Source of the DNA: an uncultured delta proteobacterium | Lineage (GTDB): Bacteria; Desulfobacterota; WTBG01; CAIYCZ01; CAIRTM01 | DNA: 64,000 bases | Assembly (NCBI GenBank): GCA_963804955.1 | Contig: CAWDSQ010000014.1 | Span: 211,672 to 275,671, forward strand | Reading direction: 5' to 3' | Shown: positions 1 to 17,849 of the stretch, piece after piece | Layout: the number at the start of each line of letters is the position of its first letter | Numbering within the stretch: the first letter of the stretch is position 1 | Program-made: the position numbers and the translations under genes | Notes under the pieces: generated by a model | What the model was told of the DNA's origin: nothing | The model's database searches: none | What the model saw: the letters and a program-made list of their open reading frames with translations, nothing else

Positions 1-8
1 CATTCAGC

Positions 9-1028
9 ATGCCTTTGCTCAATCCTCTTTATATTATTCTGGAGAGCGACGGGGGGGGATTTGATGATGAAAAAGGCGGCGGATTTGTTACACAGGCTTC
101 AACGCTCAGGGAGATGAACAGGTTTACACGGTATATGATGCAGCATGACCGCGTGATGTTTGGCATGTCAATAGTCAGTACTGTTCCAAGATATTTAATG
201 TCAACCTATGAGGATGATCCCCAGTGCTTTCATCTCCCCCGGGAAGATGAAGCCCTTCATTTTATTACCCGCCGTCTTCTGCACTCAGGTGAGCCCGGCA
301 CCTGGGATAAGTATGTGGACACGGAAGAAACCTATGCAAATATAGTAGTCTATTGCCGCGATAAAATGCCGAAAACCATTGAAAGCGTGTTTCAGCACAT
401 ACAGGACTATATAGCCAAAAATCCCGGTCCGCCGGGAGGAAAGTACCGGTTAGCCGGCGGCGCTGTCGGGGTACAGGCTGCAGTTCGCGAAGTCATTGCG
501 GATTCCCAGCTATTGATTCTCATTCTTGCATTGACAGGGGTGTGGCTGTTCAGTGCGCTTGAATTCAAGTCAATCACTGCAGGGCTTATACTTACCATAC
601 CTCTTGCCATTTCCAATGTCCTTACGTTTGCCCTCATGGCTGCCTACCAGATAGGTCTCACGGTTAATACCTTTCCGGTTGCTTCCGTAGGCATTGGGCT
701 GGGGGTGGATTATGGCATCTATTTTGTAGGCCGGCTGATAGAAGAGAAAGAAAAAGGAGGGACACTGACCGAAGCGATATACAGGGCAATAACCACCAAC
801 GGCAAATCTATTATTCAGATAGCAACAACTCTTACGCTCGGACTTGTTTTGTGGGCATTTTCACCTTTAAAATTCCAGGCAGAGATGGGCATTCTGCTGG
901 CTATTCTTTTATTCCTGAATATGCTCGGGGCTCTTTTTCTTGTGCCGGCGCTTATCTGCATTCTTAAACCAAAATTTCTAACTACTATTTATCCTCCTCC
1001 TCAGACGCAGGAAAAGCAATGTGCATAA
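9..1028 (+). CDS. RND/MMPL-family transporter, C-terminal part (gene starts before the window)
   Basis: Six hydrophobic helices with the GIGLGVDYGIY motif typical of MMPL/RND; frame open to the window edge; sits next to DUF1302/DUF1329/YCF48 genes. Confidence 0.9.
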   Translation: MPLLNPLYIILESDGGGFDDEKGGGFVTQASTLREMNRFTRYMMQHDRVMFGMSIVSTVPRYLMSTYEDDPQCFHLPREDEALHFITRRLLHSGEPGTWDKYVDTEETYANIVVYCRDKMPKTIESVFQHIQDYIAKNPGPPGGKYRLAGGAVGVQAAVREVIADSQLLILILALTGVWLFSALEFKSITAGLILTIPLAISNVLTFALMAAYQIGLTVNTFPVASVGIGLGVDYGIYFVGRLIEEKEKGGTLTEAIYRAITTNGKSIIQIATTLTLGLVLWAFSPLKFQAEMGILLAILLFLNMLGALFLVPALICILKPKFLTTIYPPPQTQEKQCA

Positions 1029-1101
1029 CAGGAGATATCGCTGAGCGACAGTTGATTTACCAGCATATGCAAAACAAACAATAAGGTAAGGGGGACTTCC
1101 T

Positions 1102-2715
1102 ATGAAAAAAAAAGTTTTTATTATGGGTGTCATCGCAGGGATGCTGGTAATCTTTTCTGTGCTGCCCCGGAGGTGCGCTGCTACTCTATTCTTTTTGAAT
1201 GAGGACCTCAGGGTAAAGGGGAGCCTGTATGAATTCATGATTTACCGAACAAAATTCAACCCGGATGAACACTACTACCGGGATACCAGATTTGGTCTTA
1301 TGCGTACTAAAGGCACCCTTGAGCTGTTGTATAAAGCGGTTGAGAATGACAAGCTTCAAGTAAATCTATTCGGGTTTTTTCAGTACTGGCGGGAAGCAGT
1401 ACCTGACTTTGATGATGAGTACCGTCACAGTATAGCATCGGATAGCAGAAAAGGATATCAGGGGCCTTTCTTTGATCAGGATGACTGGATCAATGAGGCT
1501 TATGCGGATATTTACTCTGGACCATGGAACATTCGCCTCGGGAAACAGATCGTGTTCTGGAGCGAGGTAGAGATGGTGCGAACCATTGATCGTATCAATC
1601 CCCTTGATTTGCGCTATACCACCCCCGGAATTGACCCGTGGGACGAAATGAAGCTTGGGCTGTGGATGATGCGTGGCTTCTATAATTCTACTCTGCCGGG
1701 TCAGCTTGTTTTCGAAGGGATATGGATTCCGGGTGATTTTGAGGCGGTCAGGACTCCCACCGACGGCACCAGCATGGCCGGTGGCGTTGTTAAACCTCAG
1801 GGGCCTAAGGGCAGCTGGCCCAGGCCATTCGGCCAGAAAGCATTATCCGACCTTTTGTTTGAGCGGTCAAAACCGGCTTGGACCCTCAGCAATTCATCCT
1901 GGGCTTTAAGAGTCAGGGGCAATTCACCGGTCAGCCTTTTCAGAGAGGATTATCTGCTTGACTGGACAGTGAGCTGGTTTCACGGTATGGACACCAGTCC
2001 CGTCGCCCGCACCAGCACCCTCGGTGAACCCAGCGTAACCAATCTAAACCCTAAAACCCTGAATGGCCTTATGGGCAGGAATGCGGTGAGCCGTGTCTTC
2101 GGTCTGAAGCTCCCGCAGGCGCCGCATTACAGGCTTTTCAACTACAAATTTTTTGATGCACTCGGGGCAAGCTGTCAAAGCTTCGTACCGGCATTAGATT
2201 CGGTTGTGCGCGGGGAGTTCTCTTATGAAATCGGCGTTCCCATCAACACAACATTTCCAAAGAGCGTTGAACCATCGGGCGACTTCATAACCGGCAACTC
2301 CGAACGTAACCAGGTGAATGTCGGTATTACTATTGATAAACCCGTTATCATCCCGTGGTTCCAGGAACGCGGGTGGGCCGCATTTGATTGTTCGTTCGGC
2401 TGGAGTGCGCAACGGCGGCTCGGCGATGTCAGTCGCAGATGGTCATCGTTTGGCTGGGGGGACCGGTCCCAGAACAATTTTTCGGTACTGATTAAAGGCA
2501 AATTTTATCATGAAGAGATGCGGCCGGTAATGCGTTTTTTTTACAATACCCGCAACTGGGGCTACGGCGTTCTAGCCTGTCAGTATGCGCCTGGAGAACA
2601 TATGCGCTATGAAGGAGGATATATGTGGCTTTTTGCCAAGGATCCGAGCGATTCAAGTGAAGCCTCAAGCGAAAACGGTGATTTGCTCTATTTACGTATC
2701 GGGTACGAGTTTTAA
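1102..2715 (+). CDS. DUF1302-family outer-membrane beta-barrel protein
   Basis: Signal peptide, EAYAD..IRLGKQIVFW and DRINPLD motifs, C-terminal YLRIGYEF barrel signature. Confidence 0.75.
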   Translation: MKKKVFIMGVIAGMLVIFSVLPRRCAATLFFLNEDLRVKGSLYEFMIYRTKFNPDEHYYRDTRFGLMRTKGTLELLYKAVENDKLQVNLFGFFQYWREAVPDFDDEYRHSIASDSRKGYQGPFFDQDDWINEAYADIYSGPWNIRLGKQIVFWSEVEMVRTIDRINPLDLRYTTPGIDPWDEMKLGLWMMRGFYNSTLPGQLVFEGIWIPGDFEAVRTPTDGTSMAGGVVKPQGPKGSWPRPFGQKALSDLLFERSKPAWTLSNSSWALRVRGNSPVSLFREDYLLDWTVSWFHGMDTSPVARTSTLGEPSVTNLNPKTLNGLMGRNAVSRVFGLKLPQAPHYRLFNYKFFDALGASCQSFVPALDSVVRGEFSYEIGVPINTTFPKSVEPSGDFITGNSERNQVNVGITIDKPVIIPWFQERGWAAFDCSFGWSAQRRLGDVSRRWSSFGWGDRSQNNFSVLIKGKFYHEEMRPVMRFFYNTRNWGYGVLACQYAPGEHMRYEGGYMWLFAKDPSDSSEASSENGDLLYLRIGYEF

Positions 2716-2750
2716 CCGCACACAACATATCCACAGCTAAGGAGGATAGT

Positions 2751-4016
2751 ATGAAAAAAGTTTTCACAGGAATGATTATTTTATTTCTATTCTGGTGTAT
2801 CAGTCTTACACCGGGTTTTGCCGGGGAAGTAAATTTTCCAACCCGCAGCTATGAAGGTGAAGAGCTTGCAAAAGTGCGCGAGTGGGAAAAGACCTGGGCC
2901 GGCAAAAAAGTATCTACTGAAAATATTGATCAGGTCAATGAATTTCTTCATGAAGCTGTAGTAAAAGTCCTCAAAAATCCTAAGGGGTTCGGTGCGGAGT
3001 CTTTGTGGTTCACTATTGCGCCGTATCGGCCATATGCAGTCTCCTCCGGCATGATTGCCGCCACAAAAAAATGTGCGCCTGCAAGCAAGCTTGATAACGA
3101 AGATATGCTGGCAGGGTATAGCGATGTTGCCGGAATCCCCTTTCCACAGCCAAAATCAGGCCTTGAGATGGCATGGAATTTTGCAGGCAATTCCAAAGGT
3201 GACAGTCACCGGGAAAAAAATATCGGAGATGTTGTTAACTGCGGGCAAAAAACCGAGCGGCATGCAGAAATGACCCGCTCGGAGCTGTACTGGATCGGAA
3301 GAGTAGATTCCGATCCGCGCCCCCGCATCCCTGCACAAGAAAACCCGAGGGGCATAGCACGATCATGGTTTCAGCGCAATCAAGCCCCGGTTGATTTTAT
3401 TGACATGTCAGTACTTGAACTTAAATATATTGACCATAAAAAGCAGGAAGATCTATGGGTCTACACACCGATGTTCAGAAGGATCAGGCGTTATACGGCA
3501 AGCCAGCGTACTGACTCAATTGATGGCACCGATATGATCTATGACGATCAGGACGGATGGTACACCCATCTTACCGGCAACACCTATGATTTTAAAGGCC
3601 GGGCGGATCTTCTTGTTGCACGGCATCAGGATGCCGGTCAACTCCAGAGGGTCAAAGGCCAGGCTTTCTGGAACGGTATACAGCGCGAACGGGTTAATCA
3701 CTGGGTCGTTGAAGTTAAAAGCAAGGAGCCGGGATATGTGTACAGCAGACAAATATGGTATCTGGACCCGGAGAACTGGCAGATGAACTTCAAGGTAATG
3801 TACAATCGCAAGGGTGAACTCTGGAAACTGTATGAACTGTTTTATGATGAGCATGCTACCGCATGTGGTGAAAAAACCTCGATATTTACTGCCGAGCAGT
3901 CGCTTGATGTGATTCGCCAACACGGCAGCCCCAATATCCGTGAAGTGACGGACGTGGGAGCATATATACGGCCTGATTTTTTTCAGACACAGAGCCTTAA
4001 CCAAAAATCGTATTAA
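2751..4016 (+). CDS. DUF1329-family periplasmic protein (LolA-like)
   Basis: Signal peptide; GIPFPQPKSGLEMAWN, DLWVYTPMFRRIRR, YNRKGELWK motifs. Confidence 0.85.
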   Translation: MKKVFTGMIILFLFWCISLTPGFAGEVNFPTRSYEGEELAKVREWEKTWAGKKVSTENIDQVNEFLHEAVVKVLKNPKGFGAESLWFTIAPYRPYAVSSGMIAATKKCAPASKLDNEDMLAGYSDVAGIPFPQPKSGLEMAWNFAGNSKGDSHREKNIGDVVNCGQKTERHAEMTRSELYWIGRVDSDPRPRIPAQENPRGIARSWFQRNQAPVDFIDMSVLELKYIDHKKQEDLWVYTPMFRRIRRYTASQRTDSIDGTDMIYDDQDGWYTHLTGNTYDFKGRADLLVARHQDAGQLQRVKGQAFWNGIQRERVNHWVVEVKSKEPGYVYSRQIWYLDPENWQMNFKVMYNRKGELWKLYELFYDEHATACGEKTSIFTAEQSLDVIRQHGSPNIREVTDVGAYIRPDFFQTQSLNQKSY

Positions 4017-4055
4017 ACAAACAATGAGCAGTCAAAGCTATTGTCGAAGGTTATC

Positions 4056-5114
4056 ATGGTGAGAAAAATACAAATAAAAATGTTTCTTATACCGACTGTG
4101 CTTGTCCTGGTTTTAGGCTGTGACAGGTTTGACCGTTCCAAGATACAAATGCCGGCCTTCAACTTTGTCACGAGGGAAAATCTGCACAGCATTGCCCGGG
4201 TTGATAAACAGCATATCTGGGTGAGCGGTAATTACGGGACTATACTGTACAGCGCCGATGGCGGAAAGACATGGGAAAAGCAGGTCAGCGGCATCGCCGA
4301 GGAGCTGCTGGGATGCATATCGTTTGTTAACCCTCAAGAGGGCTGGGCTGCCGGCGTCAGGGGAACAATTGTTCATACGGCTGACGGAGGAAAAACCTGG
4401 GCAGTGCAGCCAAGCGGTATTGAACAGGATATCCATGATATCTTTTTCCTGGACACGCACTATGGCTGGGCTGTTGGCGAGAGCGGAACAGTTTTGCATA
4501 CGGACGACGGGGGCAGGCGCTGGAAACGACAGAGAGAGCCTGAAGACAAATACTTTAATGATGTTTTTTTTGTTGATAGAAAAACGGGATGGATCGCCGG
4601 CGAATTCGGAACAATCCTGCATACTGCCGACGGGGGGTTAACATGGCAGCCACAAGAGTGTTCTGACCTTGCTGCTGTTTTCAAAGATGCCGAATGGGAT
4701 AGGCCGCTGCCGGCGTTGTACGGAATGTGTTTTATTGATGAAAACCGGGGATGGATCGTCGGGATGGATGGTGTCATCCTGAGGACGGAAAATGGCGGAA
4801 AGATATGGTCACTGGAAAAGCCTGTTTCCGACAAGCCCCTGTACTCTATTATAATGCGTGGCGCACAAGGATGGGCGGTTGGAAACGATGGTTTTTATTT
4901 GATGACCGAGAATGGCGGTGATACATGGTCGGTAAAAGACCAGGCTCTAAAAACCAGATTTTGGCTGCGGGCGGTGTCCTTTCAAGATGATAAGCGAGGG
5001 CTTATTGTGGGCGCCCAGGGAACCATTGCGCTTACTGATGATGGAGGCTTTTCCTGGAAGCTCATATCAGGCTACAGCTACGATATGAAAGAATTCGGGC
5101 TGGCCGATTTCTAA
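4056..5114 (+). CDS. YCF48/BNR-repeat beta-propeller lipoprotein
   Basis: Repeated GWAVG..GTILHT.DGG.TW units; lipobox LVLGC. Confidence 0.9.
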   Translation: MVRKIQIKMFLIPTVLVLVLGCDRFDRSKIQMPAFNFVTRENLHSIARVDKQHIWVSGNYGTILYSADGGKTWEKQVSGIAEELLGCISFVNPQEGWAAGVRGTIVHTADGGKTWAVQPSGIEQDIHDIFFLDTHYGWAVGESGTVLHTDDGGRRWKRQREPEDKYFNDVFFVDRKTGWIAGEFGTILHTADGGLTWQPQECSDLAAVFKDAEWDRPLPALYGMCFIDENRGWIVGMDGVILRTENGGKIWSLEKPVSDKPLYSIIMRGAQGWAVGNDGFYLMTENGGDTWSVKDQALKTRFWLRAVSFQDDKRGLIVGAQGTIALTDDGGFSWKLISGYSYDMKEFGLADF

Positions 5115-5146
5115 AGTTAATGTCCGTTATTTTGAAGGAGCATGTT

Positions 5147-6943
5147 ATGAACAGACTAAAGGTGAACAAGCTAATCTGTATTATTCCCTTGGCTGTTTTT
5201 CTTCTGCTGGGTTCATGGTCTTGCGGGTTTCGCAAGGAGAAAATCGGGGTACTGTATGTGCTCCACGGCGGCATGGAGACCAATAATTCTCAAGGCATGT
5301 GGGATGCCGTGGTGCAGCAGTTTTCCTATGACCATAATCATGCCATTTATCAATTCGTTATCTGGGATCCTGCACAGTGGCCAGCTGTTTTGGATCGTAC
5401 AGCAACCGATTTTGCAAGGCGGTTTCTGATAATGTATGAGTTTGGATATGAGCGCATGGGGGGCACCGATCCTTATCCTGACATCAGTGATAAGCAGTTG
5501 GCGCAATTGAAGGCTGAACTGAAAAAAAATACTTGCGGCCTGGACATAAAATTTGAAGTCGACTGGGTTGGTTATTTAAGCGCAGACGATGTTGCGCATT
5601 ACCCGTATCCCCGTTATATTTATAATATCCCCGATAATACTACCGGGTATCCGCCCGTCTCCGGAGTGTCCAAATGCACCTACTGCGGGGAGGGAGATCC
5701 GGACGGCCCCTGGAAGAAATGTGATCCTGAGCGCTACAATACAGACGGGCCGGTAGAGAGGCTGCTTAAAAAGGGGGTCACAAGTATCATTATGGTTGAT
5801 ACGACTACCGGCGGGGTTCGCTTTTCAAAAACCTTTGATGTGGTCCAAATGACCAAGCGGGCTCTCAATAAATGGAACCTGGAACACGATACCTCTATTC
5901 CCCTGATGTGGGTCAATGACCCCAATAATTTAATGGAGCGCTCATATCCAACAAAACCCGAAGGATGGACACGCAGCAAAAAAGCTCCTGAGGTAGACCC
6001 GAAGTTTTCTTTGGAGGGTAATCCCAATCCTGTTGTGGAAGATCCACTGCTGGCTCAATTGCACGTTGAAGGTATAGAAAAGGCCTTTTTCGATTCGGTT
6101 CCTGATAATGCTACCGGTGTCATTCTTTTTAACCATCCAATACACGATTATAATGAGTATTTTGACCCAAAAATTAATGATACCCTTATCGTAAATAAAA
6201 ATATTAAGGCCTTGCTTATTGAGCGGAATCCTGACCTTGAGCCCGCGCATATCATAGGAGCCTATGGAGGGATCCTGGAAATAAATCCGGTTACTGGCCG
6301 TGAGGAACGGACCCGGGAAATGCGCGGAGAAACCTATGGTGCTGCATGGCTTTACGAGAGCGGCAAGCAAATGCCTGGTGAAGAGTGGGGCTACCGGTAC
6401 TGGGATGCTTTAGAATATTTAAAGAACCGTGGTGTTAAGCACATTGTTATTGGGTTTCCTCAGATGATTACCGACAACAATTTAAACCTTATTGAAGTGC
6501 CGAATCAGTTTGCCAAGGAGATCGGTGTAAAAACATGGGCGAAATATAAACTGGGGGATTATACTTTGTACCCGGAAGTCGGTCATCCATTTGCAGACTA
6601 CTGGGGAGTCTGGGTTGATACACAGTGCGGGCAGGAGGAATGCTGCTTTGAAATGGGCGGCTGCAGCGATGGCCGGGCATACCCACCGCCACGACAGGCA
6701 CCAATCGATGCATCCCGCGGAGACTTGGACCCCTCCCTTGCCTTTGACGGGAGCGCCTACGGGCAGCTGGGGTTTGATGTAACCGGGGACAGCGGATTGC
6801 CGGATCCTGAAAAACCAGTACAAGATCAGTACACCGGCACCTGGGATTTATACAGAGCGGCAAATGCCGACCCCCGGCTGGCAAAGCTGCTGGCGCGCCA
6901 TGTATTGGATGCAGCTCTTAAAACGCTCCCACAGGAGGAGTAG
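5147..6943 (+). CDS. Putative lipoprotein with a divergent ferrochelatase (HemH/class II chelatase) fold
   Basis: Ordered HemH-like motifs KIGVLYVLHGG, YERMGGTDP, LKKGVTSIIMV, VILFNHP, LKNRGVKHIVIGFPQMITD..LIEV, NADPRLAKLLA; signal peptide ending SWSC; AAGGAG RBS at 5135. Confidence 0.65.
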   Translation: MNRLKVNKLICIIPLAVFLLLGSWSCGFRKEKIGVLYVLHGGMETNNSQGMWDAVVQQFSYDHNHAIYQFVIWDPAQWPAVLDRTATDFARRFLIMYEFGYERMGGTDPYPDISDKQLAQLKAELKKNTCGLDIKFEVDWVGYLSADDVAHYPYPRYIYNIPDNTTGYPPVSGVSKCTYCGEGDPDGPWKKCDPERYNTDGPVERLLKKGVTSIIMVDTTTGGVRFSKTFDVVQMTKRALNKWNLEHDTSIPLMWVNDPNNLMERSYPTKPEGWTRSKKAPEVDPKFSLEGNPNPVVEDPLLAQLHVEGIEKAFFDSVPDNATGVILFNHPIHDYNEYFDPKINDTLIVNKNIKALLIERNPDLEPAHIIGAYGGILEINPVTGREERTREMRGETYGAAWLYESGKQMPGEEWGYRYWDALEYLKNRGVKHIVIGFPQMITDNNLNLIEVPNQFAKEIGVKTWAKYKLGDYTLYPEVGHPFADYWGVWVDTQCGQEECCFEMGGCSDGRAYPPPRQAPIDASRGDLDPSLAFDGSAYGQLGFDVTGDSGLPDPEKPVQDQYTGTWDLYRAANADPRLAKLLARHVLDAALKTLPQEE

Positions 6944-6985
6944 AAAATACTATACACTATATAAAAACAAACAAAGGAGAGTCCT

Positions 6986-7693
6986 ATGCAAGCAATTCCC
7001 TATTATGAACGCATGATGGAACATCTGGCAAATTTTAATCTGTCTCCCATGAAAGAATATAACGGAGATGATATCACACAGTTTGAATACATTAAGACGG
7101 ACATGATGACGCAACATCTTCGGGCATATAAGGCCGACAAGTTGGACAAAATTGTCACGCTTACCACCGATATCATGGATGGTAAAATATTTGTTTATGG
7201 AACCACAATTGTTCCAACAGATGAATATCCTCTGCCTATTTTTACCTCTGAAATAGTTCCAGCGGTAAACCATCTCAGCTTGCGGGTTGATTTTATTCCC
7301 CTTGCAGATTGTGCACGTGACCTTGATTATATGGAAAAATACATGATGCCCATGGAAGACCTGTGGGAAAAACACAGACCGATAGAAGGCTCAGGCATTG
7401 AGCGCTATACCTGGCAGCGGGTTATGCTTTCGCCTTTTTATTCGTATGGAAAATATAAATATACTATTGAAAATATCGAGGAAACGGCAATGCAGATTAC
7501 TATTGACTATTTGAAACTCTATATAAAACTCTGGTCCGGAGTGCAAAAGGCGGATCCCGGCTATATGAAGTTGCTCAATGAAAGAAAGAGAGTAATGCTG
7601 AATACCATGATGGAGAATGACCCGGGTGAAGGACCTCTGACAAAAGGCTTTGGCAAAGAAACAGCTCACAAAATTCTTTCACTTCTTTTTTAA
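6986..7693 (+). CDS. Ferredoxin-dependent bilin reductase (FDBR) family protein, RCCR/HY2/PebB-like
   Basis: YPLPIFTSE..LRVDFIPL..DYMEKY, RVMLSPF and C-terminal ENDPGEGPLTKGFGKETAHKILSLLF match the FDBR motif order; 235 aa. Confidence 0.75.
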   Translation: MQAIPYYERMMEHLANFNLSPMKEYNGDDITQFEYIKTDMMTQHLRAYKADKLDKIVTLTTDIMDGKIFVYGTTIVPTDEYPLPIFTSEIVPAVNHLSLRVDFIPLADCARDLDYMEKYMMPMEDLWEKHRPIEGSGIERYTWQRVMLSPFYSYGKYKYTIENIEETAMQITIDYLKLYIKLWSGVQKADPGYMKLLNERKRVMLNTMMENDPGEGPLTKGFGKETAHKILSLLF

Positions 7694-7756
7694 ACAAACC
7701 ATATTGTTAAGACCATGCCAGGTGGTGTATAGGGCAAGGCCAGAAAGGGAAGTCAA

Positions 7757-8212
7757 ATGAAAAAAGTAATTTTGTTACTATCTTTCGTGCTCTTTCTTTA
7801 TGCATACCCCGGTTTTGCCGGCGAACAAACCCCAGCACGTGGGGTAGTTGAAGCAACCGGTGTTGACCTTAAACAACAGGTTGTCAGGATACGCGGATAT
7901 GAAGGTGTTTCACCCCTTAACCTTTTTATAGAACCGGGAACGGTGGTTATTTGGCTCAACCAGTATCAAGGGCCGATAAAAATAACCTTCCTTTCAAAAA
8001 AGGTAACACTTGCATGTAAGAGCCCGGTTAATTTCTTTATTAATGAGCAGGGAGTCTTTGAATCAAGCGTTGTCGGGTTTGGCGCGGTTGCCAGTCTTTG
8101 TATGGTTGAATGCGGATCATTTGACTATGTAATAGAGCGATCACCGGCTGATGCCTCTGCAAGATCAGAGGGTTTCAGGTTTGAAGGAAGGATTGTCGTT
8201 AAGAAAAAATAG
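7757..8212 (+). CDS. Exported cupredoxin-like protein lacking canonical type-1 Cu ligands
   Basis: Signal peptide; P..L.IEPGTVVIWLN and GSFDY...GRIVV cupredoxin pattern, with no C-x-x-H..M loop. Confidence 0.55.
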   Translation: MKKVILLLSFVLFLYAYPGFAGEQTPARGVVEATGVDLKQQVVRIRGYEGVSPLNLFIEPGTVVIWLNQYQGPIKITFLSKKVTLACKSPVNFFINEQGVFESSVVGFGAVASLCMVECGSFDYVIERSPADASARSEGFRFEGRIVVKKK

Positions 8213-8226
8213 ATGGAGAATCCTGT

Positions 8227-8769
8227 ATGACAACTCATGAAATAACACCGGAAGAAAGAAAAAAGATAGTGGATGAGGCGCTTATAAAGATGAAGATAAA
8301 AAGAAAAAACCTCTCCCGCGAAGAACTTGAAAAAGAAATCATTGATTATCTCAGTAAAAAACAGCCCTGCAGTTTGGCGACCTGCGGCAACGACTGCACC
8401 CCCCGCATATCGGTAGTAGACTACGTCAATGAGGGTCTTACCATCTATATTCTCAGCGAAGGCGGGGATAAATTCAAAAATCTTGCAGAGAACAAAAAAG
8501 TTGCCATTGGAATCGGTACCGGTGCCAAGGCTTTGAAAACAAGAGGTGTCAATATCCGGGGTATTGCCGAAGTCATTAGCGATGATGCACCCGGGTTTGC
8601 CCATGGTATAAAAGTCATGCAGCCTGTATTGGATGACATGGCAGAGGCATTGGGGTGCCCTTTTAAGTTACCCAAGGGAATACTCAGGCTGATCAAAGTC
8701 ACTCCAACTAAAATAGTTTACCATCATACAATGCGGGGGGTTAAGCATGCTGTTTGGGAAGCATACTAG
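8227..8769 (+). CDS. Pyridoxamine 5'-phosphate oxidase-like FMN-binding split-barrel protein
   Basis: CSLATC..PRIS, KFKNLAENKKVAI, GVNIRGIAE motifs. Confidence 0.85.
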   Translation: MTTHEITPEERKKIVDEALIKMKIKRKNLSREELEKEIIDYLSKKQPCSLATCGNDCTPRISVVDYVNEGLTIYILSEGGDKFKNLAENKKVAIGIGTGAKALKTRGVNIRGIAEVISDDAPGFAHGIKVMQPVLDDMAEALGCPFKLPKGILRLIKVTPTKIVYHHTMRGVKHAVWEAY

Positions 8770-8927
8770 TAAAAAAAAATTGATTTAAAAAAATGAGGGC
8801 TTGCTTCCTTGAGAAGCTTTAGGTTGAAGCCTGCTTAAAGGAAAACCTGGAATGCGGATAATTCCTTTTTCAGAGCTATAACAATAAAAAAATAAGCCCC
8901 GGAAGTATTTACAGTGAAGGAGCATTC

Positions 8928-9788
8928 ATGGCAGATAAGTTCGCTGACGTGCGTATTGTCGATAACTTTTACCAGACATCCAGTTTTTTCCCTATGCCGG
9001 TTGTTCTTGTGAGCACTCTGGCTGAATCAGGGCAAACCAACCTGGGACCCTACTCACTGTGTTTTCCTCATTATGTCACCGGAGGAAAAGATCATGCCAT
9101 GATGCTTATTGCCCGCGGCACAAGCAATACGGCCATGAATATAATACGCACCAGGGTATGTGCCCTTAATTTTATTCCGCATACAAAGAAATTCATGAAA
9201 AACTGCGTTATGCTGGGTTATCCGGGCGAAACCACTGAGGAAAAGATGAAAAACAGTATTTTTACCCTGATGCCATCTCTCAGACAAGAACAACAAAAAC
9301 CCGGGCACTGGCCTGATATTGTTAAGGAAGCTGTTCAAATCTTTGAATGCACCTGGGATGACAGCTATCCTTTAAAGCCGCGCGAGGATTTAGTAGAATC
9401 CCATTTCCTGCTTCGTATTGATAAAATTGTCATGAAGGAGAAATGGAAAGATTGCCTGCTTAAAGGTAAAGGTTTCCCCCGTTTGCCGATTGATTATGGA
9501 TACCGGGATAATGTTCGATTTTGGTTTGCTCGACAATCGAGGCCGTATGCGGTTCCCATTCCAAAAGAAAAAGGCAACAAAATTGAAACGGTGAAGTATG
9601 CCTGTGTCCGGTTTGACCCGAATATCGCCTGGCAGGATGAAGCCTGCGCAAAAATAGTGAAAGTGCCGAGCATATTTTTAAATAAAGTTATCAGTGGTGT
9701 TGTGAAAGCAGCAAAAGAGCAAGGGGTTACGGTTATTACCCCCGAGTTTATGGACAAAATTCGAGATAAGCGCTCAAATCAAAAATAG
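8928..9788 (+). CDS. Flavin reductase-like (split barrel) protein with C-terminal PCP_red domain
   Basis: PMPVVLVST..NLGPYS..NTAMNI..LNF; C-terminus IAWQDEACAKIVKVPSIFLNKV..AAKEQGVTVITPEFM resembles the BchB/ChlB C-terminal domain. Confidence 0.75.
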   Translation: MADKFADVRIVDNFYQTSSFFPMPVVLVSTLAESGQTNLGPYSLCFPHYVTGGKDHAMMLIARGTSNTAMNIIRTRVCALNFIPHTKKFMKNCVMLGYPGETTEEKMKNSIFTLMPSLRQEQQKPGHWPDIVKEAVQIFECTWDDSYPLKPREDLVESHFLLRIDKIVMKEKWKDCLLKGKGFPRLPIDYGYRDNVRFWFARQSRPYAVPIPKEKGNKIETVKYACVRFDPNIAWQDEACAKIVKVPSIFLNKVISGVVKAAKEQGVTVITPEFMDKIRDKRSNQK

Positions 9789-10028
9789 TGCAGTCCGCTC
9801 ACCTGCAGGAGACAGTAATAAAGATTTTTTGAAAAAATTCAGCAAACAAACGGGTGTGGAGTCGACAGGTTGTCTTAAATGCCGTAATTAAAAACTAGAC
9901 CTTTTAATTTGTTCCAGATGAGGATTTCCCCTTCGATAAGTGATATGTGTTGGCAGATAGAAAGTTTTGACTAATGTAATCTATTTAGCAGCGATTCCAT
10001 GACATGAATTTCAACATGAAGGAGTTTT

Positions 10029-11447
10029 ATGGAAGTCCAGAGTGAAATTAAAAAAGATGTAAAAAAGTTTGCAGGCATAGAAATTCCGCCGGATCTAACC
10101 AGGTCGAATTTTTTCTTTCTGTATGTAAACACCGTTCTCATGGGTTTGTTAATGGCTGTTTCTGCCATCATCCAGCCGGCATTTTTAAGTGATATTGTTA
10201 AAATTAAACAGGATTTCGCCGGCTCCATAAATGGACTGCTGCAGAATATGAGCCAGATTGCCACCTTTGCGTTTGTGGCCATCATCGGGGTTTTGTCAGA
10301 TAAACTGGGGCGAAAAATACTGGCATTTTCGGGATTCATAGTTGTTGCATTTTTTACCTTTCTCATGAGCCAGTCCAATAGCATTGCTTCGTTTCTGAAT
10401 ATTCCTGCCGAATTTTCCTCCCAGATATGCGCACTGCTCAGCTTTTTCCCGGGCAGGGCTGCTGAATTCACTGATTTCGCTCCCGGGTTGCTCTGCACCT
10501 ATATCACCCGTTTTGTAATCGGCATCGGTCTTGTCCTTGCCTATCCTCAGTTTATTACCATGGTGGCTGACTATACCTATGAGAAGGACCGCGGCAAAGG
10601 CATGGCAATGAACGGAGCCAGTATGGGCATTGCAGCGCTGCTGGTCTTTGTAATTCTCGCTCCAATCCAGAAAAAGGCTGGGGTTCTAAATCTCATGTAT
10701 ATTATTTCAGGAGTTGCAATTGCAGGTGCAATTTGCACGGGGGTATTTCTGAGAGATAGGATACAGGAATCAAAGCTAAAAAAAATCGGGTTTTTTAATA
10801 TAATTCCGATGGTACGAAAAAGCCTGCCGATTAAAACAAGTTATCTGTGTGCGCTGGTGACCAGGGCTGATATTATGGTTCTCACCGCATTTTTAGTGAC
10901 TTGGGCTGTTAAATATGGCCAGCAGGTCAAAATGGCTTCAAACGACGCAACTATGAAATCAGCTATTCCAATGATAATCATGGGTGTTTTTTCATTGATT
11001 GCTTTTCCAATAGTCGGCATCATGATTGACAAATGGGGCAGAATACAGATAATCATACTTGCTCTTTTTAGCAGCGCATTTGGGATGACTCTTCTCGCTT
11101 TGTCTCCTAATCCATTCAGTAGTGTCGTGTATTTTGCGGTCATATTTATTGCAATTGGCATGGCTGGATCTATAGCAGGAGCCAATGCTTTGGCAGCAGA
11201 TAATTCCCCCCCGGGTATGGTGGGATCAATTCTGGGAGGTCTTAATACCATGCAGCCAGTTGGAGTATTGTTTTTCCTTGGGCTTGGCGGATATTTATTT
11301 GACGTGTTTGGACCTGGATGGGCTTTTGGGCTGAAAGGTGCTGCAAGCTTGATGCTTGGCATATGGGTATTTGCTGTAAGGGGCAACCTTATGGGGGAGC
11401 TGCGGCAGGCACCCGGCCATTACCCCCCCCCCCCCCCGAGCAAATAG
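10029..11447 (+). CDS. MFS transporter
   Basis: About 12 TM helices; GVLSDKLGRK and GIMIDKWGR motif A repeats; 3' end runs into a poly-C tract. Confidence 0.9.
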   Translation: MEVQSEIKKDVKKFAGIEIPPDLTRSNFFFLYVNTVLMGLLMAVSAIIQPAFLSDIVKIKQDFAGSINGLLQNMSQIATFAFVAIIGVLSDKLGRKILAFSGFIVVAFFTFLMSQSNSIASFLNIPAEFSSQICALLSFFPGRAAEFTDFAPGLLCTYITRFVIGIGLVLAYPQFITMVADYTYEKDRGKGMAMNGASMGIAALLVFVILAPIQKKAGVLNLMYIISGVAIAGAICTGVFLRDRIQESKLKKIGFFNIIPMVRKSLPIKTSYLCALVTRADIMVLTAFLVTWAVKYGQQVKMASNDATMKSAIPMIIMGVFSLIAFPIVGIMIDKWGRIQIIILALFSSAFGMTLLALSPNPFSSVVYFAVIFIAIGMAGSIAGANALAADNSPPGMVGSILGGLNTMQPVGVLFFLGLGGYLFDVFGPGWAFGLKGAASLMLGIWVFAVRGNLMGELRQAPGHYPPPPPSK

Positions 11448-11565
11448 TGGCAACTGACAAAGGAATGTTATGAAGCCGTCTCAAATCGCTACAGATACGG
11501 CGATGCCCCAATTTTCTGGTTCGGCGAATATCAATAATGATATTTTCATCATAATTAGTGAGCAT
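11443..11565 (-). mobile_element. IS481-family transposase remnant
   Basis: Translates IIDIRRTRKLGHRRICSDLRRLHNIPLSVATI, like the IS481 HTH segment. Confidence 0.55.
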
Positions 11566-12070
11566 GAACAACCCCTTTTTATCAAAGCGTAAATGCGTGA
11601 CTGTCAATAAATTAGAAGCCCCACAGCTCTCTGGAGATACCTGGTGGTATATAAAAAGCAAAAAGTCTGACTCCTTGCGGAATAATATATAACTACCCAG
11701 CGCGCGGACTCGAACCACGGATACTGGGAGCTTACTATAAAGCTTTGATTGCTTTATGTCAGAAATTTTGTAATTTTTTTGAGGAGAGTGACAGGTGTGT
11801 GACACGGCTGGGATAGCCGTATAAGGGGTAAGGGAACCGGCTAATTTTGTGAAGAATCATACAGGCCTAACTACTAGATAGAGTGTTTGGGCCTTTTCTC
11901 TAAAAAGTCAACATTACGTGATAGAATGTGGATATGCGAGACATGCCATGTCTCTGTCATTTAAGGGGTGAAGTCGGAACACAAGACCTCATACTGACCT
12001 GCGCCCCCTAACGAAAAAGCCTGCAAAAATACGCCCCTCCATTCAAAATAAAGGCGGTCGGGGCGGCATA

Positions 12071-12415
12071 TCACATCGGGTTTTCATAAAAAACGTAGGT
12101 CGAAAAATCGCTGATCTCAAAATAAGTCTTTTTCTCACCCGGGTCCACCTGGTAGTTCAAATTCGCATCGATATGTCCGTAACCATAGCGGTATGAGCGT
12201 GCTTCAGGCTCGCCGGTACCGAGGGCCGTTGACATCTTATCGATTTTGATGAACCGCTTCACAAGCTTGTCGCCGGCATACACATCAACAACGCCGTTGG
12301 TGCCGGTCCAGTTTTGAATGCTGCGGCCCAGGCGGTTCTGCGACTCCTGCGTGCAGGCGGCACAGCAGACGACCAGGGCGCAGATTTCAACTGATAATAA
12401 AATTTTTTGCTTCAT
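12071..12415 (-). CDS. Hypothetical lipoprotein
   Basis: MKQK..CAAC lipobox-like signal, 114 aa, GGGAG RBS. Confidence 0.7.
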   Translation of the reverse strand: MKQKILLSVEICALVVCCAACTQESQNRLGRSIQNWTGTNGVVDVYAGDKLVKRFIKIDKMSTALGTGEPEARSYRYGYGHIDANLNYQVDPGEKKTYFEISDFSTYVFYENPM

Positions 12416-12497
12416 GATGGTGCTCCCTTTATAAAGTTTTCCCACAAACAAGAGAACAATATTAATAATTAAAACATTTCTATTCCCTCCCCCTTTG

Positions 12498-12638
12498 GAG
12501 ACTGTGTCGCAATTAACTTTGCTGTCATCTCGACCGAAGGGAGAGATCTTTGTAGTAAGTAAAATCAAGGGCTTAAGATTTCTCACCGCCTGCGGCGGAT
12601 TCGAAATGACATTAATAAATCAATTGCGACACAGGCTC
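12498..12638. mobile_element. MITE-like element, 17-bp TIRs, 3-bp TTG target duplication
   Basis: GAGACTGTGTCGCAATT (12498-12514) and AATTGCGACACAGGCTC (12622-12638) are 16/17 inverted; TTG on both flanks. Confidence 0.8.
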
Positions 12639-12687
12639 TTGCTAAAGGGGGAATTTTTCTCGCACCCTTTTTAGCAGAACGTTGTAC

Positions 12688-13732
12688 TTAATCGATTTGC
12701 GGCAGCGGCGTGTCCTTGGTCGGCACCGGCAGAATCGGGTACTCGACCTTTGGCTGCACGCCCGTGGTTGTTTTCAAAAAATCAGCAATTTTTTCAATCT
12801 CGTCCTTCGACAGCTTGATGCCGAGCTGAGCCGAACCCATGATACCGGTAGCCTCCTTCAGGCACCAGACTTTCCCTGAATGGAAATAGGGGGTCGTTAG
12901 CTCTATATTGCGAAGAGAAGGAGATTTGAACACATACTGATCCGACTGCGAGCCCGTGAGCTTGAAGCGGCCCGTATCGCCTGCGGTAATTTCCGTTTGT
13001 GGGTTTTTCCACAACACCGAAGGGGAAATAGCCCGTGCCGCCCATATTGATCCCGCCATGGCAGGACGCGCAGCCCTTGTTCATGAACAGCTGCAAGCCG
13101 TCTTTGTCGCGGGCCGTCAGGGCCTTTTCATCGCCCTTCAGATACTTGTCAAAGGGGGAATCGGGTGTGAGCAGCGTCGCCTCGAACGCCTCTATGGCCT
13201 TGGCCATGGTGTCAAACGTCAAGGGGGTTTTCTCGGCGCTGAAGGCTTTCTTGAAGGCAGCTACATACTCGGGCATGCTTTCAAGGGTCTTGACCACCTG
13301 CTCGGGGGTATTGCTCATCTCGACCGATGCCTGCACCGGCCCTTTGGCCTGCTGCATCAGGTCGGTGGCGCGGCCGTCCCAGAACTGGGCGATATTAAAC
13401 ACCGAGTTGAGCACGGTCGGAGAATTGCGGCCGCCCTTCTGCCACTTGTGCCCTATCGAGGTTTCCTGAAAATCGGCGCCGCCAAGGCCCAGATTATGGC
13501 AGGTATTGCAGCTGATAAGGCCGCTGCGGGAAAGCCGGGGGTCGAAGTACAGCATGGCGCCCAGGGCGATCTTCTCCGGCGTCACGGGATTGTGGCCGAT
13601 TGCCGGGGGAGTTGCGGGGATCGGTTTAAACAGGGCCTGCGCCTGCTGCATGACCGGATCGGCCGTTGCGGCAAAGGATGCAGAGACCCCTAAAAAAATA
13701 ATAGCAATGACAACAGTGACGACTTTTTTCAT
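12688..13732 (-). CDS. ccpA: Di-heme cytochrome c peroxidase (frameshift near 13000)
   Basis: Signal peptide, CNTCH and CASCH heme motifs, QFWDGRA; C-terminal FKSPSLRNIELTTPYFHSG lies in a second frame. Confidence 0.9.
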
Positions 13733-13791
13733 GGCATGACTCCTTTTAACGTTATGATTGCGTAATATTTGAACATCTGCCGCATATCTTG

Positions 13792-14748
13792 TCAAACAAA
13801 AATCAGGTCAAGCTGAGCAGCAGTCTCTATGGTAAGACCGCTGCCGGGAGCAGGCAAATCTTCGTAGAGTTCCCCGTCTGCCTGAAAGCAGGTCGTTCCT
13901 GAACAGTGTATTGTAAGGCTGCGTGCCTGAAACTGCATAAGCGATGGCAGAAGCCGCGGCAGCGGCAGCTTTACAAACCGGGTCATATGCAGCATGAACC
14001 ACTGCGGCAGCGTTGCAGCGATCGTAACCTCGAAAAGGCCGTCGTCAATGCGGCAGTGATCCGAAGGCCTGGCGCCTGCGGCATAGCTCGGTATGCTCGT
14101 CACCAACACCTGCCGCGCCCCCTGCCCTATCTGCAGCGTACGGGGCTGCTTGTCCGTATCGGCATACCGAAGTTCCAGGGCAAAGGGCATATGATACAGC
14201 AGATTCCGGCCTGCAAACCAGGCATAGGCAACTCTGCCGCCAAATACTGCGGCGGCTGCACGCATGAACGGCGAATGCCGCAGGCGGTTGTAATCATTTG
14301 AAATTTTCGCATCGAGGCCGATGCCGCAGTAGTTGGTGAAGAAAAGTTCGCCGTTGACGCTGAATATATCAAGCCGTCGCGTGCTTTCGGCAAGAAGGGC
14401 CTTCACAAGCGGCCTTAGACCATTTTGTTTATAGAGCCGATAGGAGCCTGATACGCGGGCAAGATCATTCCCGGTACCGATGGGGATGATGCCCAGGCGG
14501 GGCTTTTTCTCACGGCGCGCAAGCTCCTGCACAATACGGGCTGCGGTGCCGTCGCCGCCTGCGGCAATAATGCTGTCATAGGAGGCAAAATCGCCCTGGA
14601 AAATCGACGGCCCGCCGTCCTGAGTAAAAGCTGTGTCGCAGGCAGTCTGTGCTCCCAGATCGTGCAGTATAAATTCAAGGCTTTCCTTGAGGCTAGCGCC
14701 TGCGCGGCCACCGGATACGGGATTGATAAGAAAAAGGGTTTTTTTCAT
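13792..14748 (-). CDS. Diacylglycerol/lipid kinase family protein
   Basis: NPVSGG, AAGGDGT, GIIPIGTGNDLAR, QADGE motifs. Confidence 0.9.
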   Translation of the reverse strand: MKKTLFLINPVSGGRAGASLKESLEFILHDLGAQTACDTAFTQDGGPSIFQGDFASYDSIIAAGGDGTAARIVQELARREKKPRLGIIPIGTGNDLARVSGSYRLYKQNGLRPLVKALLAESTRRLDIFSVNGELFFTNYCGIGLDAKISNDYNRLRHSPFMRAAAAVFGGRVAYAWFAGRNLLYHMPFALELRYADTDKQPRTLQIGQGARQVLVTSIPSYAAGARPSDHCRIDDGLFEVTIAATLPQWFMLHMTRFVKLPLPRLLPSLMQFQARSLTIHCSGTTCFQADGELYEDLPAPGSGLTIETAAQLDLIFV

Positions 14749-17000: not shown

Positions 17001-17849
17001 ATGTGGGACTACAATGAAAAAGTAAAAGAGCATTTTCTCAACCCGCGCAATGTCGGTGAGATAAAGGATGCTGATGCAGTAGGAGAGGCAGGCTCCCTTG
17101 CCTGCGGCGACCAGCTGAAACTTATGCTGAAGGTGAACGATAAAGGCATTATCACCGATGCCAAGTTCCAGACCTTCGGCTGCGGCAGCGCCATAGCCTC
17201 GGCCTCGGCGCTCACTGAGCTGATTATCGGCAAAAGCATGGACGATGTGGCAAAAATAACCAATAAGGACATCGTTGACTATCTGGGCGGGCTGCCGGTT
17301 GAAAAAATGCACTGCTCGGTCATGGGCCATGAGGCTCTGGAAGCGGCCGTGAGCAACTACTATGGCGAAAGCCCCGAAACGCTCGAGGCCAAAAAAAAGC
17401 ATGTCGTGTGCGAGTGCTTCGGCGTGACCGACCAGGAGATCATCAGCGTCGTGCGCGACAACAAACTCCTGACGGTGGAGGATGTGACCCACTATACCAA
17501 AGCGGGAGGAGGCTGCATGTCGTGCCACGATAAAATCCGGGCGCTCATCGAAAAAGTGGCCGGCGAGTCTGAAAAGGCCGCCCCGCCGAAACCGGAGGCA
17601 AAAAAGCTCACCAACCTGCAGAAGGTAAAGCTCATCGAAGAAACCTTCGAAAAAGAAATCCGGCCCATGCTGCGCGCCGACGGCGGCGACATTGAGCTGA
17701 TCGATATTGAGGGCAGCCGCGTGACCGTGTCGCTGCGGGGCATGTGCTCCTCCTGCACGAGCGCAAGCTTTACCCTTAAAAAATACATCGAGCCCAAGCT
17801 GCGCGAATTTGTCAGCGATGATATTACTGTAGAGGAGGTGAAGCCGTGA
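17001..17849 (+). CDS. nifU: Fe-S cluster scaffold NifU
   Basis: IscU domain (ACGD, FGCGSA, KMHC), BFD-like CEC..GGCMSC and Nfu GMCSSC domains. Confidence 0.95.
   Translation: MWDYNEKVKEHFLNPRNVGEIKDADAVGEAGSLACGDQLKLMLKVNDKGIITDAKFQTFGCGSAIASASALTELIIGKSMDDVAKITNKDIVDYLGGLPVEKMHCSVMGHEALEAAVSNYYGESPETLEAKKKHVVCECFGVTDQEIISVVRDNKLLTVEDVTHYTKAGGGCMSCHDKIRALIEKVAGESEKAAPPKPEAKKLTNLQKVKLIEETFEKEIRPMLRADGGDIELIDIEGSRVTVSLRGMCSSCTSASFTLKKYIEPKLREFVSDDITVEEVKP

Follow-up and report, generated by a model that had tools for sequence, protein, structure and literature searches.

The present study concerns a 64,000-nucleotide stretch of DNA (hereafter the window) from an uncultured delta proteobacterium (assembly GCA_963804955.1, contig CAWDSQ010000014.1, positions 211,672 to 275,671 of the forward strand), in which the gene at positions 5147 to 6943 encodes an exported protein with a predicted ferrochelatase fold (hereafter the target). 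To judge from its conserved residues, the target is no ferrochelatase of haem biosynthesis; binding of porphyrin-type pigments outside the cytoplasm is its probable role, since part of the catalytic machinery has been lost and two histidines, which appear to face each other, have been kept. On the simplest reading, the target would be a periplasmic or cell-surface protein that binds (metallo)porphyrins. More specifically, we favour with moderate confidence an extracytoplasmic homologue of the ferrochelatase HemH that is no longer an enzyme of haem synthesis, binds a (metallo)tetrapyrrole in the retained cleft and acts in its capture and hand-over. Metal removal by the target is possible.

Predicted fold and lineage

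An AlphaFold2 model of the target, built from an alignment of 50 family members (mean pLDDT 87.8, pTM 0.88), contains the two-domain class II chelatase fold with its C-terminal helix. When this model was compared with the PDB using Foldseek, ranks 1 to 43, comprising every match at E < 1e-5, were ferrochelatases (human, yeast, Bacillus subtilis, Bacillus anthracis and Listeria monocytogenes; best E 3.1e-8). The class II chelatases HemH, SirB, CbiK and FetB all matched the model in structural alignments with VIA-align (Z 13.5-24.3), and the next structural matches after the chelatases were sugar-binding periplasmic proteins:

L. monocytogenes CpfC (8aw7): Z 24.3, rmsd 2.9 A, 304/309 residues, model residues 31-594
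B. subtilis HemH: Z about 23.7-23.8
Human FECH: Z 22.2
SirB: Z 16.3
Desulfovibrio vulgaris periplasmic CbiK: Z 15.5
Porphyromonas gingivalis FetB: Z 14.8
CbiK: Z 13.5
First unrelated binding protein: Z 9.9

Because Z is about 24 against ferrochelatases and 16.3 or less against the other chelatases, the model places the target in the HemH lineage of the class II chelatase fold. A preliminary description of this gene, made from the sequence alone, had proposed a ferrochelatase fold, and superposition on ferrochelatases upheld that proposal above chance. In the ESM atlas, the target's own cluster scored 0.95 and the next ferrochelatase clusters 0.84, while a CbiK look-alike ranked 27th at 0.75.

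The canonical ferrochelatase signature is absent from the target, as neither Pfam nor NCBIfam yielded a family for it at E up to 0.01; a single-sequence phmmer search against PDB chains at E up to 10 found nothing, and a whole-genome scan with PF00762 touched a target paralogue at only 20.6 bits (cut-off 27). With a profile of the family, the 10 best PDB profile matches were all ferrochelatases (E about 0.07). For comparison with HemH, 25 canonical ferrochelatase loci were taken from genomes of the same phylum, and the 14 with clean open reading frames (ORFs) were aligned; of the other 11, which were left out, one yielded no ORF and 10 yielded over-long ORFs from GC-rich DNA. The family profile (50 members) aligned with these 14 sequences in hhalign at a probability of 82% (E 1.1e-5, 280 columns), with target residues 28-461 matched to HemH residues 1-290.

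Gene, start and export leader

The coding sequence and its principal elements, all on the plus strand, are as follows:

5134..5140, +: Shine-Dalgarno-like GAAGGAG, 6 nt ahead of the ATG at 5147 (read directly)
5147..6943, +: coding sequence of the target, exported ferrochelatase-fold protein, 598 amino acids (aa) (ORF, full-length homologues, AlphaFold2 model)
5147..5224, +: predicted signal peptide ending in Cys26, lipoprotein-like, with the non-canonical lipobox GSWS before the Cys (sequence, family leaders)
5264..5272, +: H40-G41-G42, equivalent to M-G-G of HemH NMGGP, position of human M76 (hhalign)
5447..5473, +: YERMGGTDP (residues 101-109), equivalent to ferrochelatase YxxIGGxSP (G106 in 187/188, P109 in 184/188 family sequences)
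5579..5746, +: insertion A, about residues 145-200, carrying the conserved Cys C180 and C192 (unmatched in the HemH profile)
6125..6139, +: LFNHP (residues 327-331), with H330 at the catalytic His (human H263) (hhalign; His in 188/188)
6470..6496, +: TDNNLNLIE (residues 442-450), equivalent to the pi-helix motif SDHxETLxE (hhalign, family counts)
6530..6871, +: large C-terminal insertion, about residues 462-575, ahead of the final helix (hhalign end 461, structural end 594, DSSP)

The coordinates in the preliminary description proved exact, with an ATG at 5147 and a stop at 6943. An alternative in-frame ATG at 5120 would add nine residues; the start was nevertheless placed at 5147 because the N-termini of homologues coincide with that Met. 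The N-terminus, MNRLKVNKLICIIPLAVFLLLGSWSC, reads as a signal peptide whose last residue is Cys26, and the earlier suggestion of a lipoprotein-like signal is borne out to the extent that Cys occurs at the same place in most relatives; the lipobox itself (S-W-S-C26, with W at -2) is off the strict pattern [LVI][ASTVI][GAS]C. Residues were counted throughout over 188 sequences (the target, 119 proteins retrieved by searches and 68 locus ORFs of at least 520 aa), of which 170 have a leader of at least 15 aa. All 170 leaders resemble signal peptides, 105 having a Cys within the last 12 residues ahead of the conserved mature domain and 22 a strict lipobox; the remaining leaders that were printed look like ordinary, cleavable signal peptides. 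Tat export of the target was considered and ruled out, the RRx motif being found in only 19/170 leaders. Judged by these leaders, export looks universal across the family and lipid anchoring frequent, not universal, and the target itself is probably lipid-anchored.

Active-site residues

As the preliminary description had recognised, HemH-like motifs occur in the HemH order; YERMGGTDP, LFNHP and TDNNLNLIE align with their HemH counterparts. H330 aligns with H192 of HemH SAHSLP, the equivalent of human H263 and B. subtilis H183, and its conservation in every family sequence substantiates the earlier claim that this His is kept; H263 is the invariant catalytic His of the human enzyme (PMC9133952). 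FDPK (339-342) corresponds to HemH GDPY, with D340 and K342 each present in 188/188 sequences.

The pi-helix motif has changed at both positions of the proton-abstraction network. DHxET is invariant across the 14 aligned canonical HemH sequences. In the family, its Asp is retained as D443 (D in 144/188); the His position, N444 in the target, holds S in 147/188 and N in 35/188, never His; and the catalytic Glu position (the first E of the motif), which the preliminary description had suspected of being Leu, is L446, with L in 184/188 and never D or E. The second E of the motif, E450, is E in 185/188 and D in 3/188. In human ferrochelatase, the hydrogen-bond network that serves proton abstraction is made by E343 and H341 of the pi helix; the E343K variant lacks activity and is purified together with protoporphyrin, and the E343D variant is impaired (PMC9133952).

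A further substitution, which the preliminary description did not mention, is H40, which is His in 182/188 sequences, the remaining six being N-terminal gaps. It occupies the position of human M76, which lies beside N75 and opposite H263 (PMC9133952); we infer here that the consensus 'NM' of the aligned HemH sequences is N75 and M76. The alignment thus indicates a family that keeps the porphyrin-facing His, is without the proton-relay pair and has a second His on the other face of the pocket, and that is predicted to be unable to use the canonical proton-relay chemistry. His40 and His330 would hold the macrocycle between them and might both act as ligands of a central metal, one on each side. 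For structural biologists, the target may serve as a natural 'M76H, E343L' ferrochelatase.

Ferrochelatases can also run in reverse in vitro, removing iron. The main rival to a binding role is removal or exchange of the metal, an activity argued for FetB (PMC13065792): the target would be an active extracytoplasmic chelatase, dechelatase or transmetallase that takes Fe or Mg out of an imported metalloporphyrin, or exchanges its metal, with His40, Glu450 and Asp443 joining His330 in place of the lost Glu and the product being taken up, for example, through the MamH-like major facilitator superfamily (MFS) transporter encoded in the same operon. The invariance of the catalytic His, the partly kept acidic pi helix (E450 and D443) and the presence of that transporter gene are consistent with such an activity, as is the exported, haemin-binding FetB, for which chelatase activity is reported (PMC13065792). 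However, the Glu shared by all 14 canonical HemH sequences is Leu here and the neighbouring His is Ser or Asn, replacement of this Glu inactivates (E343K) or impairs (E343D) the human enzyme (PMC9133952), and the transporter matches MamH below the cut-off (219.8 vs 300 bits). We regard an active enzyme as unlikely.

Comparison with known chelatases

With HemH (PpfC/CpfC, PF00762/TIGR00109), the target shares the class II fold over the whole core, the order of motifs, YxxIGGxxP and the catalytic-site His. It differs in having no Pfam or NCBIfam match, in its lipoprotein-like export leader (the last step of haem synthesis being cytoplasmic or matrix-side), in its size (598 vs about 320 aa), in the Leu for catalytic Glu, the Ser or Asn for pi-helix His and the invariant His at the M76/Y13 position, and in six conserved Cys within insertions. 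Exported CbiK-type proteins (D. vulgaris periplasmic CbiK, 2XVX/2XVZ; P. gingivalis FetB/IhtB, 9B86) likewise have a chelatase fold outside the cytoplasm and may offer the best functional analogy for the target; however, they belong to a different lineage with which the target has no sequence match, are about 260-290 aa long without comparable insertions, give Z scores of 15.5 and 14.8 as opposed to 24, and have kept chelatase activity (PMC13065792). FetB is described as an outer-membrane haemin-binding protein whose chelatase activity is linked to Mn-protoporphyrin, and both FetB and CbiK are said to bind metallated porphyrins (PMC13065792). The earlier statement that haem-synthesis ferrochelatases are not exported lipoproteins therefore stands for enzymes of the HemH type, which are not known in that form, but needs to be qualified by the exported chelatase folds of the CbiK lineage (CbiK, FetB; PMC13065792). 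In the literature searched (subscription journals largely outside), no exported, double-sized HemH-lineage family without the catalytic Glu was described; exported CbiK-type folds are already known.

Insertions and conserved cysteines

The core of the target is spread over residues 31-594, with about 290 extra residues in four insertions at about residues 145-200, 256-300, 362-417 and 462-575, as placed from hhalign gaps and the range of the structural alignment. The resulting length agrees with the roughly 600 aa, against 320 for HemH, of the preliminary description (598 aa vs 315-332 aa in the 14 aligned HemH sequences). The large C-terminal insertion carries a Cys cluster (C494, C499, C500 and C506) and a GHPF motif with H480. 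Cys-rich inserts (CTYC..C and CGQEECC..C) had been pointed out before; six of these Cys are conserved (C180 in 184/188, C192 in 183/188, C494 in 175/188, C499 in 177/188, C500 in 184/188 and C506 in 183/188), whereas C177 is not (86/188). An even number of conserved Cys in an exported protein suggests three disulfides. A [2Fe-2S] site like that of animal ferrochelatase was considered for the Cys cluster and rejected, as the Cys lie in insertions without a HemH counterpart and the leader is of the Sec/lipoprotein type.

The operon in the window

The genes from position 9 to 11447 are all on the plus strand, separated by gaps of 14-240 nt. Those around the target are:

9..1028, +: RND (HAE3/MMPL-type) transporter, C-terminal part, first gene of the upstream module (family scans)
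1102..2715, +: DUF1302 protein, outer-membrane type (family scan; description of AmeA, PMC6394551)
2751..4016, +: DUF1329/LolA-like protein (family scan)
4041..5114, +: BNR/Ycf48-like beta-propeller, 32 nt upstream of the target (family scans)
6986..7693, +: member of the FDBR family (ferredoxin-dependent bilin reductases), without signal peptide (Pfam PF05996)
7757..8212, +: small exported protein of 151 aa, no named family (paralogues beside similar clusters in the same genome)
8227..8769, +: PNPOx-fold protein (family scans)
8928..9788, +: protein with a sub-threshold PCP_red-like C-terminal domain (24.7 bits vs cut-off 32.5)
10029..11447, +: MFS transporter, MamH-like (219.8 bits vs equivalog cut-off 300)

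The FDBR assignment is based on PF05996 (E 8.4e-15, 55.5 bits, cut-off 31) and on matches to FDBRs in the PDB (E 5.5e-6). A HutZ/HugZ identity of the PNPOx gene was rejected (22.5 and 18.2 bits vs cut-offs of 225 and 240) and was not used as evidence. Likewise set aside was a pre-PcyA gene-cluster context for the FDBR gene: pre-PcyA clusters are described as carrying haem oxygenase, BBAG globin, V4R and Fe-S genes (PMC10151467, PMC13446030), none of which was found in the window's operon.

The four genes upstream of the target belong to the same families (DUF1302, DUF1329, BNR and RND) as the AmeABCD-type module. Such four-gene modules are co-fit in several bacteria and have been proposed to export an envelope component (bioRxiv 10.1101/072470), and AmeABCD of Castellaniella, the same module, is tied to monoterpene metabolism and tolerance (PMC6394551). 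Ame-type modules, as described there, have no chelatase-fold fifth gene, whereas here the BNR gene and the target behind it are only 32 nt apart.

A promoter and terminator scan of positions 1-12700 gave 19 promoters (21.0 +/- 4.6 in shuffles) and 16 terminators (13.3 +/- 3.5); as these counts are no higher than in shuffled sequence, they are uninformative on the limits of the operon. The G+C content falls from about 0.48 up to the target to about 0.42 from the FDBR gene to the MFS gene, with a break at about 7000, despite a gene order that is kept in orthologous loci. Further along the window, a di-haem cytochrome c peroxidase gene (12794-13795, minus strand) and a NifU/NifS pair (17001-19024, plus strand) are ordinary and unrelated to the target.

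Neighbours across the family

Part or all of the order RND-DUF1302-DUF1329-BNR-target is kept in four orthologous loci (L001, L016, L017 and L076; 62-93% identity by tblastn), followed by FDBR and PNPOx genes in L016, L017 and L076; L001 and L017 are cut loci. For a broader comparison, ORFs of 80 loci were clustered and cluster representatives annotated, 73 loci having a target ORF in the cluster. These were split by locus number into 33 'delta-type' loci (L001-L028, L056, L069, L076, L078 and L079, which include one Spirochaetota and two 'uncultured bacterium' records) and 40 gamma/alpha-type loci. Because many loci are cut at contig ends, the following counts, within 7 kb of the target homologue, are lower bounds:

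FDBR-family genes: delta 10/33 (6 immediately adjacent, often as a tandem pair); gamma/alpha 0/40
Any of DUF1302, DUF1329, BNR and RND: delta 7/33; gamma/alpha 0/40
221-aa twin-arginine-leader family ('c7'): delta 5/33 (4 adjacent); gamma/alpha 2/40
NuoE/NuoF-like genes: delta 5/33; gamma/alpha 0/40
Geranylgeranyl-reductase-family flavoproteins: delta 5/33; gamma/alpha 0/40
DUF1838 gene with twin-arginine leader: delta 0/33; gamma/alpha 15/40 (12 adjacent)
Cytoplasmic GlcD-like FAD_binding_4 gene: delta 3/33 (0 adjacent); gamma/alpha 13/40 (11 adjacent)
Cytochrome c: delta 0/33; gamma/alpha 5/40
HiPIP: delta 0/33; gamma/alpha 3/40

DUF1838 genes with Tat leaders stand next to gamma-type homologues in L052 (9803-10666) and 17 other loci. 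The DUF1838 model (pLDDT 81.5) is a beta-barrel, and its best matches among PDB representatives were BFA1 (Z 10.2), the bilin lyase CpeS (9.7), DUF3598 (9.4) and the nitrobindin-like Rv2717c (8.9), followed by haem-binding nitrobindins at 7.7 and 7.3, a haemophore at 7.2 and two more bilin lyases, CpeT (7.1) and CpcT (6.3). The likeness of the modelled barrel to bilin lyases and nitrobindins is a lead only; in the literature searched, DUF1838 was mentioned in two papers, in passing only.

The redox genes of gamma-type loci raise another possibility, that the target is a periplasmic b-type haemoprotein whose fixed haem, held by His40 and His330, would transfer electrons with periplasmic partners. 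Two conserved His on opposite faces of the pocket, as aligned, would suit such a protein, as would cytochrome c, HiPIP and the Tat-exported DUF1838 within 7 kb. Yet these partners occur in a minority of loci and none adjoins the target in the window's operon, and the family's leaders are of the Sec/lipoprotein type, with few RRx motifs. A fixed-haem electron carrier therefore appears very unlikely.

The tandem 221-aa twin-arginine proteins (c7), which have conserved Cys and His and no named family, lie directly downstream of target homologues (L002:11719-13099, L004:11844-13210, L007:2030-3412, L011:6865-8217 and L006:1655-2299). Their look-alikes in the ESM atlas, which are ATC_hydrolase-like, score 0.91 but have a low feature count and are no more than a lead. 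A relationship between c7 and DUF1838 was examined and discarded (hhalign probability 50% or less; the only pair above 50% was FDBR cluster c8 with c44). The 151-aa small exported protein has five further sites in the window's genome (C14:178.7 kb, C32:97 kb, C7:150 kb, C7:421.5 kb and C9:39 kb, C numbers denoting contigs) and adjoins RND/DUF1302 or target clusters, also in L010, L016, L017 and L025.

Superclusters and a second ferrochelatase-like family

Searches of the window's genome with the context proteins (tblastn) revealed several paralogous superclusters (C7:376-423 kb, C5:84-108 kb, C20:72-92 kb, C22:60-95 kb and C32:66-77 kb). These join DUF1302/DUF1329/BNR/RND and FDBR genes with NuoEF-like modules, PNPOx proteins, esterases and GlcD-like enzymes, and include up to six geranylgeranyl-reductase-family genes in tandem. 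The C7 supercluster (about 376-423 kb) runs from PadR regulators, flavoproteins, a PorB-like protein, NuoE/F-like proteins, Fe-S proteins, PNPOx and two c7 genes, through an FDBR gene, a second ferrochelatase-like gene, an esterase, DUF1329/DUF1302/RND/BNR, an FDBR pair and an electron-transfer flavoprotein (ETF), to GlcD-like and CCG proteins, a short-chain dehydrogenase/reductase (SDR), two paralogues of the target, of which one bears TSP3 repeats, an MFS transporter, an aldehyde:ferredoxin oxidoreductase and another gene for the 151-aa exported protein. The window's genome has about nine FDBR-family copies, which is unusual for a non-phototroph; nothing on FDBR-family genes in Desulfobacter-named taxa was found in the literature searched.

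The second ferrochelatase-like family found in the same gene clusters as the target family is also exported, with a signal peptide and a length of about 460-480 aa. It is represented by L081:1048-2436(+), L082:1333-2742(-) and L083:1003-2430(+) in the window's own genome, and beyond these by L002:14620-16065(+). Its members match PF00762 (E 1e-9 to 5e-6) and align with canonical HemH in hhalign (97.6%, E 3.8e-12), keep the catalytic His and have Asp at the catalytic Glu position. The second family and the target family are not alignable (hhalign probability 1%) and show no detectable relationship apart from the fold.

Canonical HemH was not found in the window's genome (87% complete), where the best match, at 32.7 bits, was the second ferrochelatase-like family; nor was it found in 3/3 genomes of the window's family or in 1/1 of its order, while it occurs in 54/151 genomes of the phylum sample. 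The genome has the aminolaevulinate dehydratase (ALAD) gene, and its URO-D-like match reaches only 32 bits. The siroheme-dependent haem route requires no HemH, and the presence of ALAD in a genome where HemH was not found fits that route. The organism would have no need of the target gene for haem synthesis by the classical route.

FDBR-family genes are rare outside phototrophs, and their company bears on a third alternative, in which the chelatase fold has been reused for a non-tetrapyrrole ligand, either the hydrophobic substrate of the upstream module (isoprenoid, lipid or aromatic) or a free metal ion, and the tetrapyrrole flavour of the neighbourhood is coincidence. In keeping with this, the module is found in clusters for monoterpenes, phenanthrene, p-cresol and steroids (bioRxiv 10.1101/072470; PMC6394551), generic redox enzymes, those of the geranylgeranyl-reductase family among them, abound in the superclusters, and sugar-binding periplasmic proteins follow the chelatases in the structural comparison. 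However, the residues conserved are exactly the porphyrin-facing ones of ferrochelatase (H330 and H40), FDBR-family genes recur beside target homologues, a second ferrochelatase-like family lies in the same clusters, and the first binding protein reaches only Z 9.9 compared with 24 for ferrochelatases. A ligand of this kind is considered distinctly unlikely.

Proposed role

Binding or demetallation of tetrapyrroles, the function suggested in the preliminary description, has become more plausible because of the second conserved His opposite the first and the tetrapyrrole-linked neighbours. The recurrence of three independent folds with tetrapyrrole links (FDBR, the second chelatase-like family and the nitrobindin/bilin-lyase-like barrel), together with the hydrophobe module of delta-type loci, favours capture and hand-over. 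The target would be a periplasmic or outer-membrane-anchored component that captures exogenous porphyrin-type pigments and hands them over, cooperating with the adjacent DUF1302/DUF1329/BNR/RND hydrophobe-transport module and the MFS transporter; the pigment may then be fed to cytoplasmic bilin-reductase-like and flavoprotein enzymes.

Several points weigh against this interpretation. The facing geometry of H40 and H330, and a cleft that stays open despite four insertions, are inferred from alignment alone, and the hhalign probability to HemH is only 82%. The fold matches of DUF1838 are middling (about Z 10 or less), and its barrel type binds many lipids and hydrophobic ligands. Many neighbours (geranylgeranyl-reductase-family flavoproteins, NuoEF-like proteins, ETF, aldehyde:ferredoxin oxidoreductase, esterases and GlcD-like FAD enzymes) are generic genes of anaerobic catabolism that suit any hydrophobic substrate, the RND module has been reported from clusters for monoterpenes, aromatics and steroids, the HutZ/HugZ match is far below and the PCP_red match below its cut-off, and gamma-type loci are without an FDBR gene (0/40). 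The generic redox and isoprenoid enzymes and the missing FDBR genes of gamma-type loci are the main evidence against a narrowly tetrapyrrole-directed role.

A wider and rather improbable proposal is that sediment bacteria take in exogenous chlorophyll- or haem-type pigments and degrade them by an anaerobic route that has not been described so far, to which the family would contribute capture or demetallation outside the cytoplasm. In such a route, the Ame-like outer-membrane and RND module would move the hydrophobic pigment, the two exported ferrochelatase-fold families would bind it or strip its metal, and esterases would release the side chain from its ester bond; the products could then be reduced in the cytoplasm by FDBR/RCCR-like reductases and by flavoproteins of the geranylgeranyl-reductase family, which NuoEF-like proteins and ETF would feed.

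Ferrochelatase is among the best-studied enzymes of tetrapyrrole metabolism, and the target family is a large, strongly conserved, exported and double-sized branch of it without the catalytic Glu. Should metalloporphyrins bind in the two-His pocket, the family would represent a novel kind of envelope receptor for haem or pigments, hosted by uncultured relatives of sediment sulfate reducers and by Gammaproteobacteria of marine and fresh waters. Its steady association with bilin-reductase-family genes in anaerobes that are not phototrophs offers a gene set for studying pigment uptake, demetallation and degradation without O2.

Family size and distribution

A word-indexed search of 5.8 billion proteins with the target returned 632 matches at E <= 1e-3; among the matches listed (120 of 632), identities were 49-87% and nearly all were unnamed, while one JGI record bears the name 'protoheme ferro-lyase'. 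Full-length homologues are 55-93% identical to the target. The 50-member profile gave 190 matches, many of them fragments, among 1.84 billion representatives, and the matches listed (150 of 190) all appear to be family members or fragments (E <= 5e-12). Because the profile search returned only 190 matches, the family is considered compact and well separated from others.

Relatives are encoded by 195 genomic stretches in GTDB (one genome per species), 80 of which made up the locus analysis. These 80 loci come from Thermodesulfobacteriota or 'delta proteobacterium' metagenome-assembled genomes, many Gammaproteobacteria (labels including Woeseia, Chromatiaceae and Steroidobacteraceae), some Alphaproteobacteria and one Spirochaetota single-amplified genome. 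In the window's phylum, the family occurs in 5/151 sampled genomes, with 4-9 matching pieces each; the five positive genomes are the window's own, 3/3 of its family and 1/1 of its order, and the family was not found in the 146 other sampled genomes. Among the genomes sampled, the family thus occurs in one order within the Thermodesulfobacteriota, with several copies per genome, and it is patchy in Gammaproteobacteria and Alphaproteobacteria.

About four family copies are present in the window's genome (4.26 Mb, 36 contigs, 87% complete): the target itself, two in tandem on C7 and a further one on C11. The three non-target copies (C7:412901-416914 and C11:91931-93667) are interrupted by frame changes or TGA codons. 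The ALAD gene (C16:141172-142117) is likewise split between frames, which suggests that the 'broken' paralogues are assembly indel errors and not pseudogenes.

Sediment-labelled metagenome runs contain parts of the window, with shares of 0.20-0.27 in the four best; contigs at >= 99% identity to the window number 30/187 in run X1 and 37/236 in run X2, covering 30 and 29 of 30 bins, respectively. In two sediment metatranscriptome libraries, short contigs are 90-96% identical to parts of the gene, with patchy cover and possible DNA carry-over (X19, 392 nt at 5549-5940 with 39 differences; X20, 163 nt at 6445-6607 with 7 differences). These contigs derive from relatives and give only a weak hint of expression.

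Some family members (P0046, P0052, P0082, P0088, P0105 and others, and also L120:18173-19999(-)) are fused to thrombospondin type 3 (TSP3) repeats (PF02412) or have other precomputed domains (PF00404, PF18998, PF07495 and PF18203). These additional modules point to cell-surface or extracellular forms.

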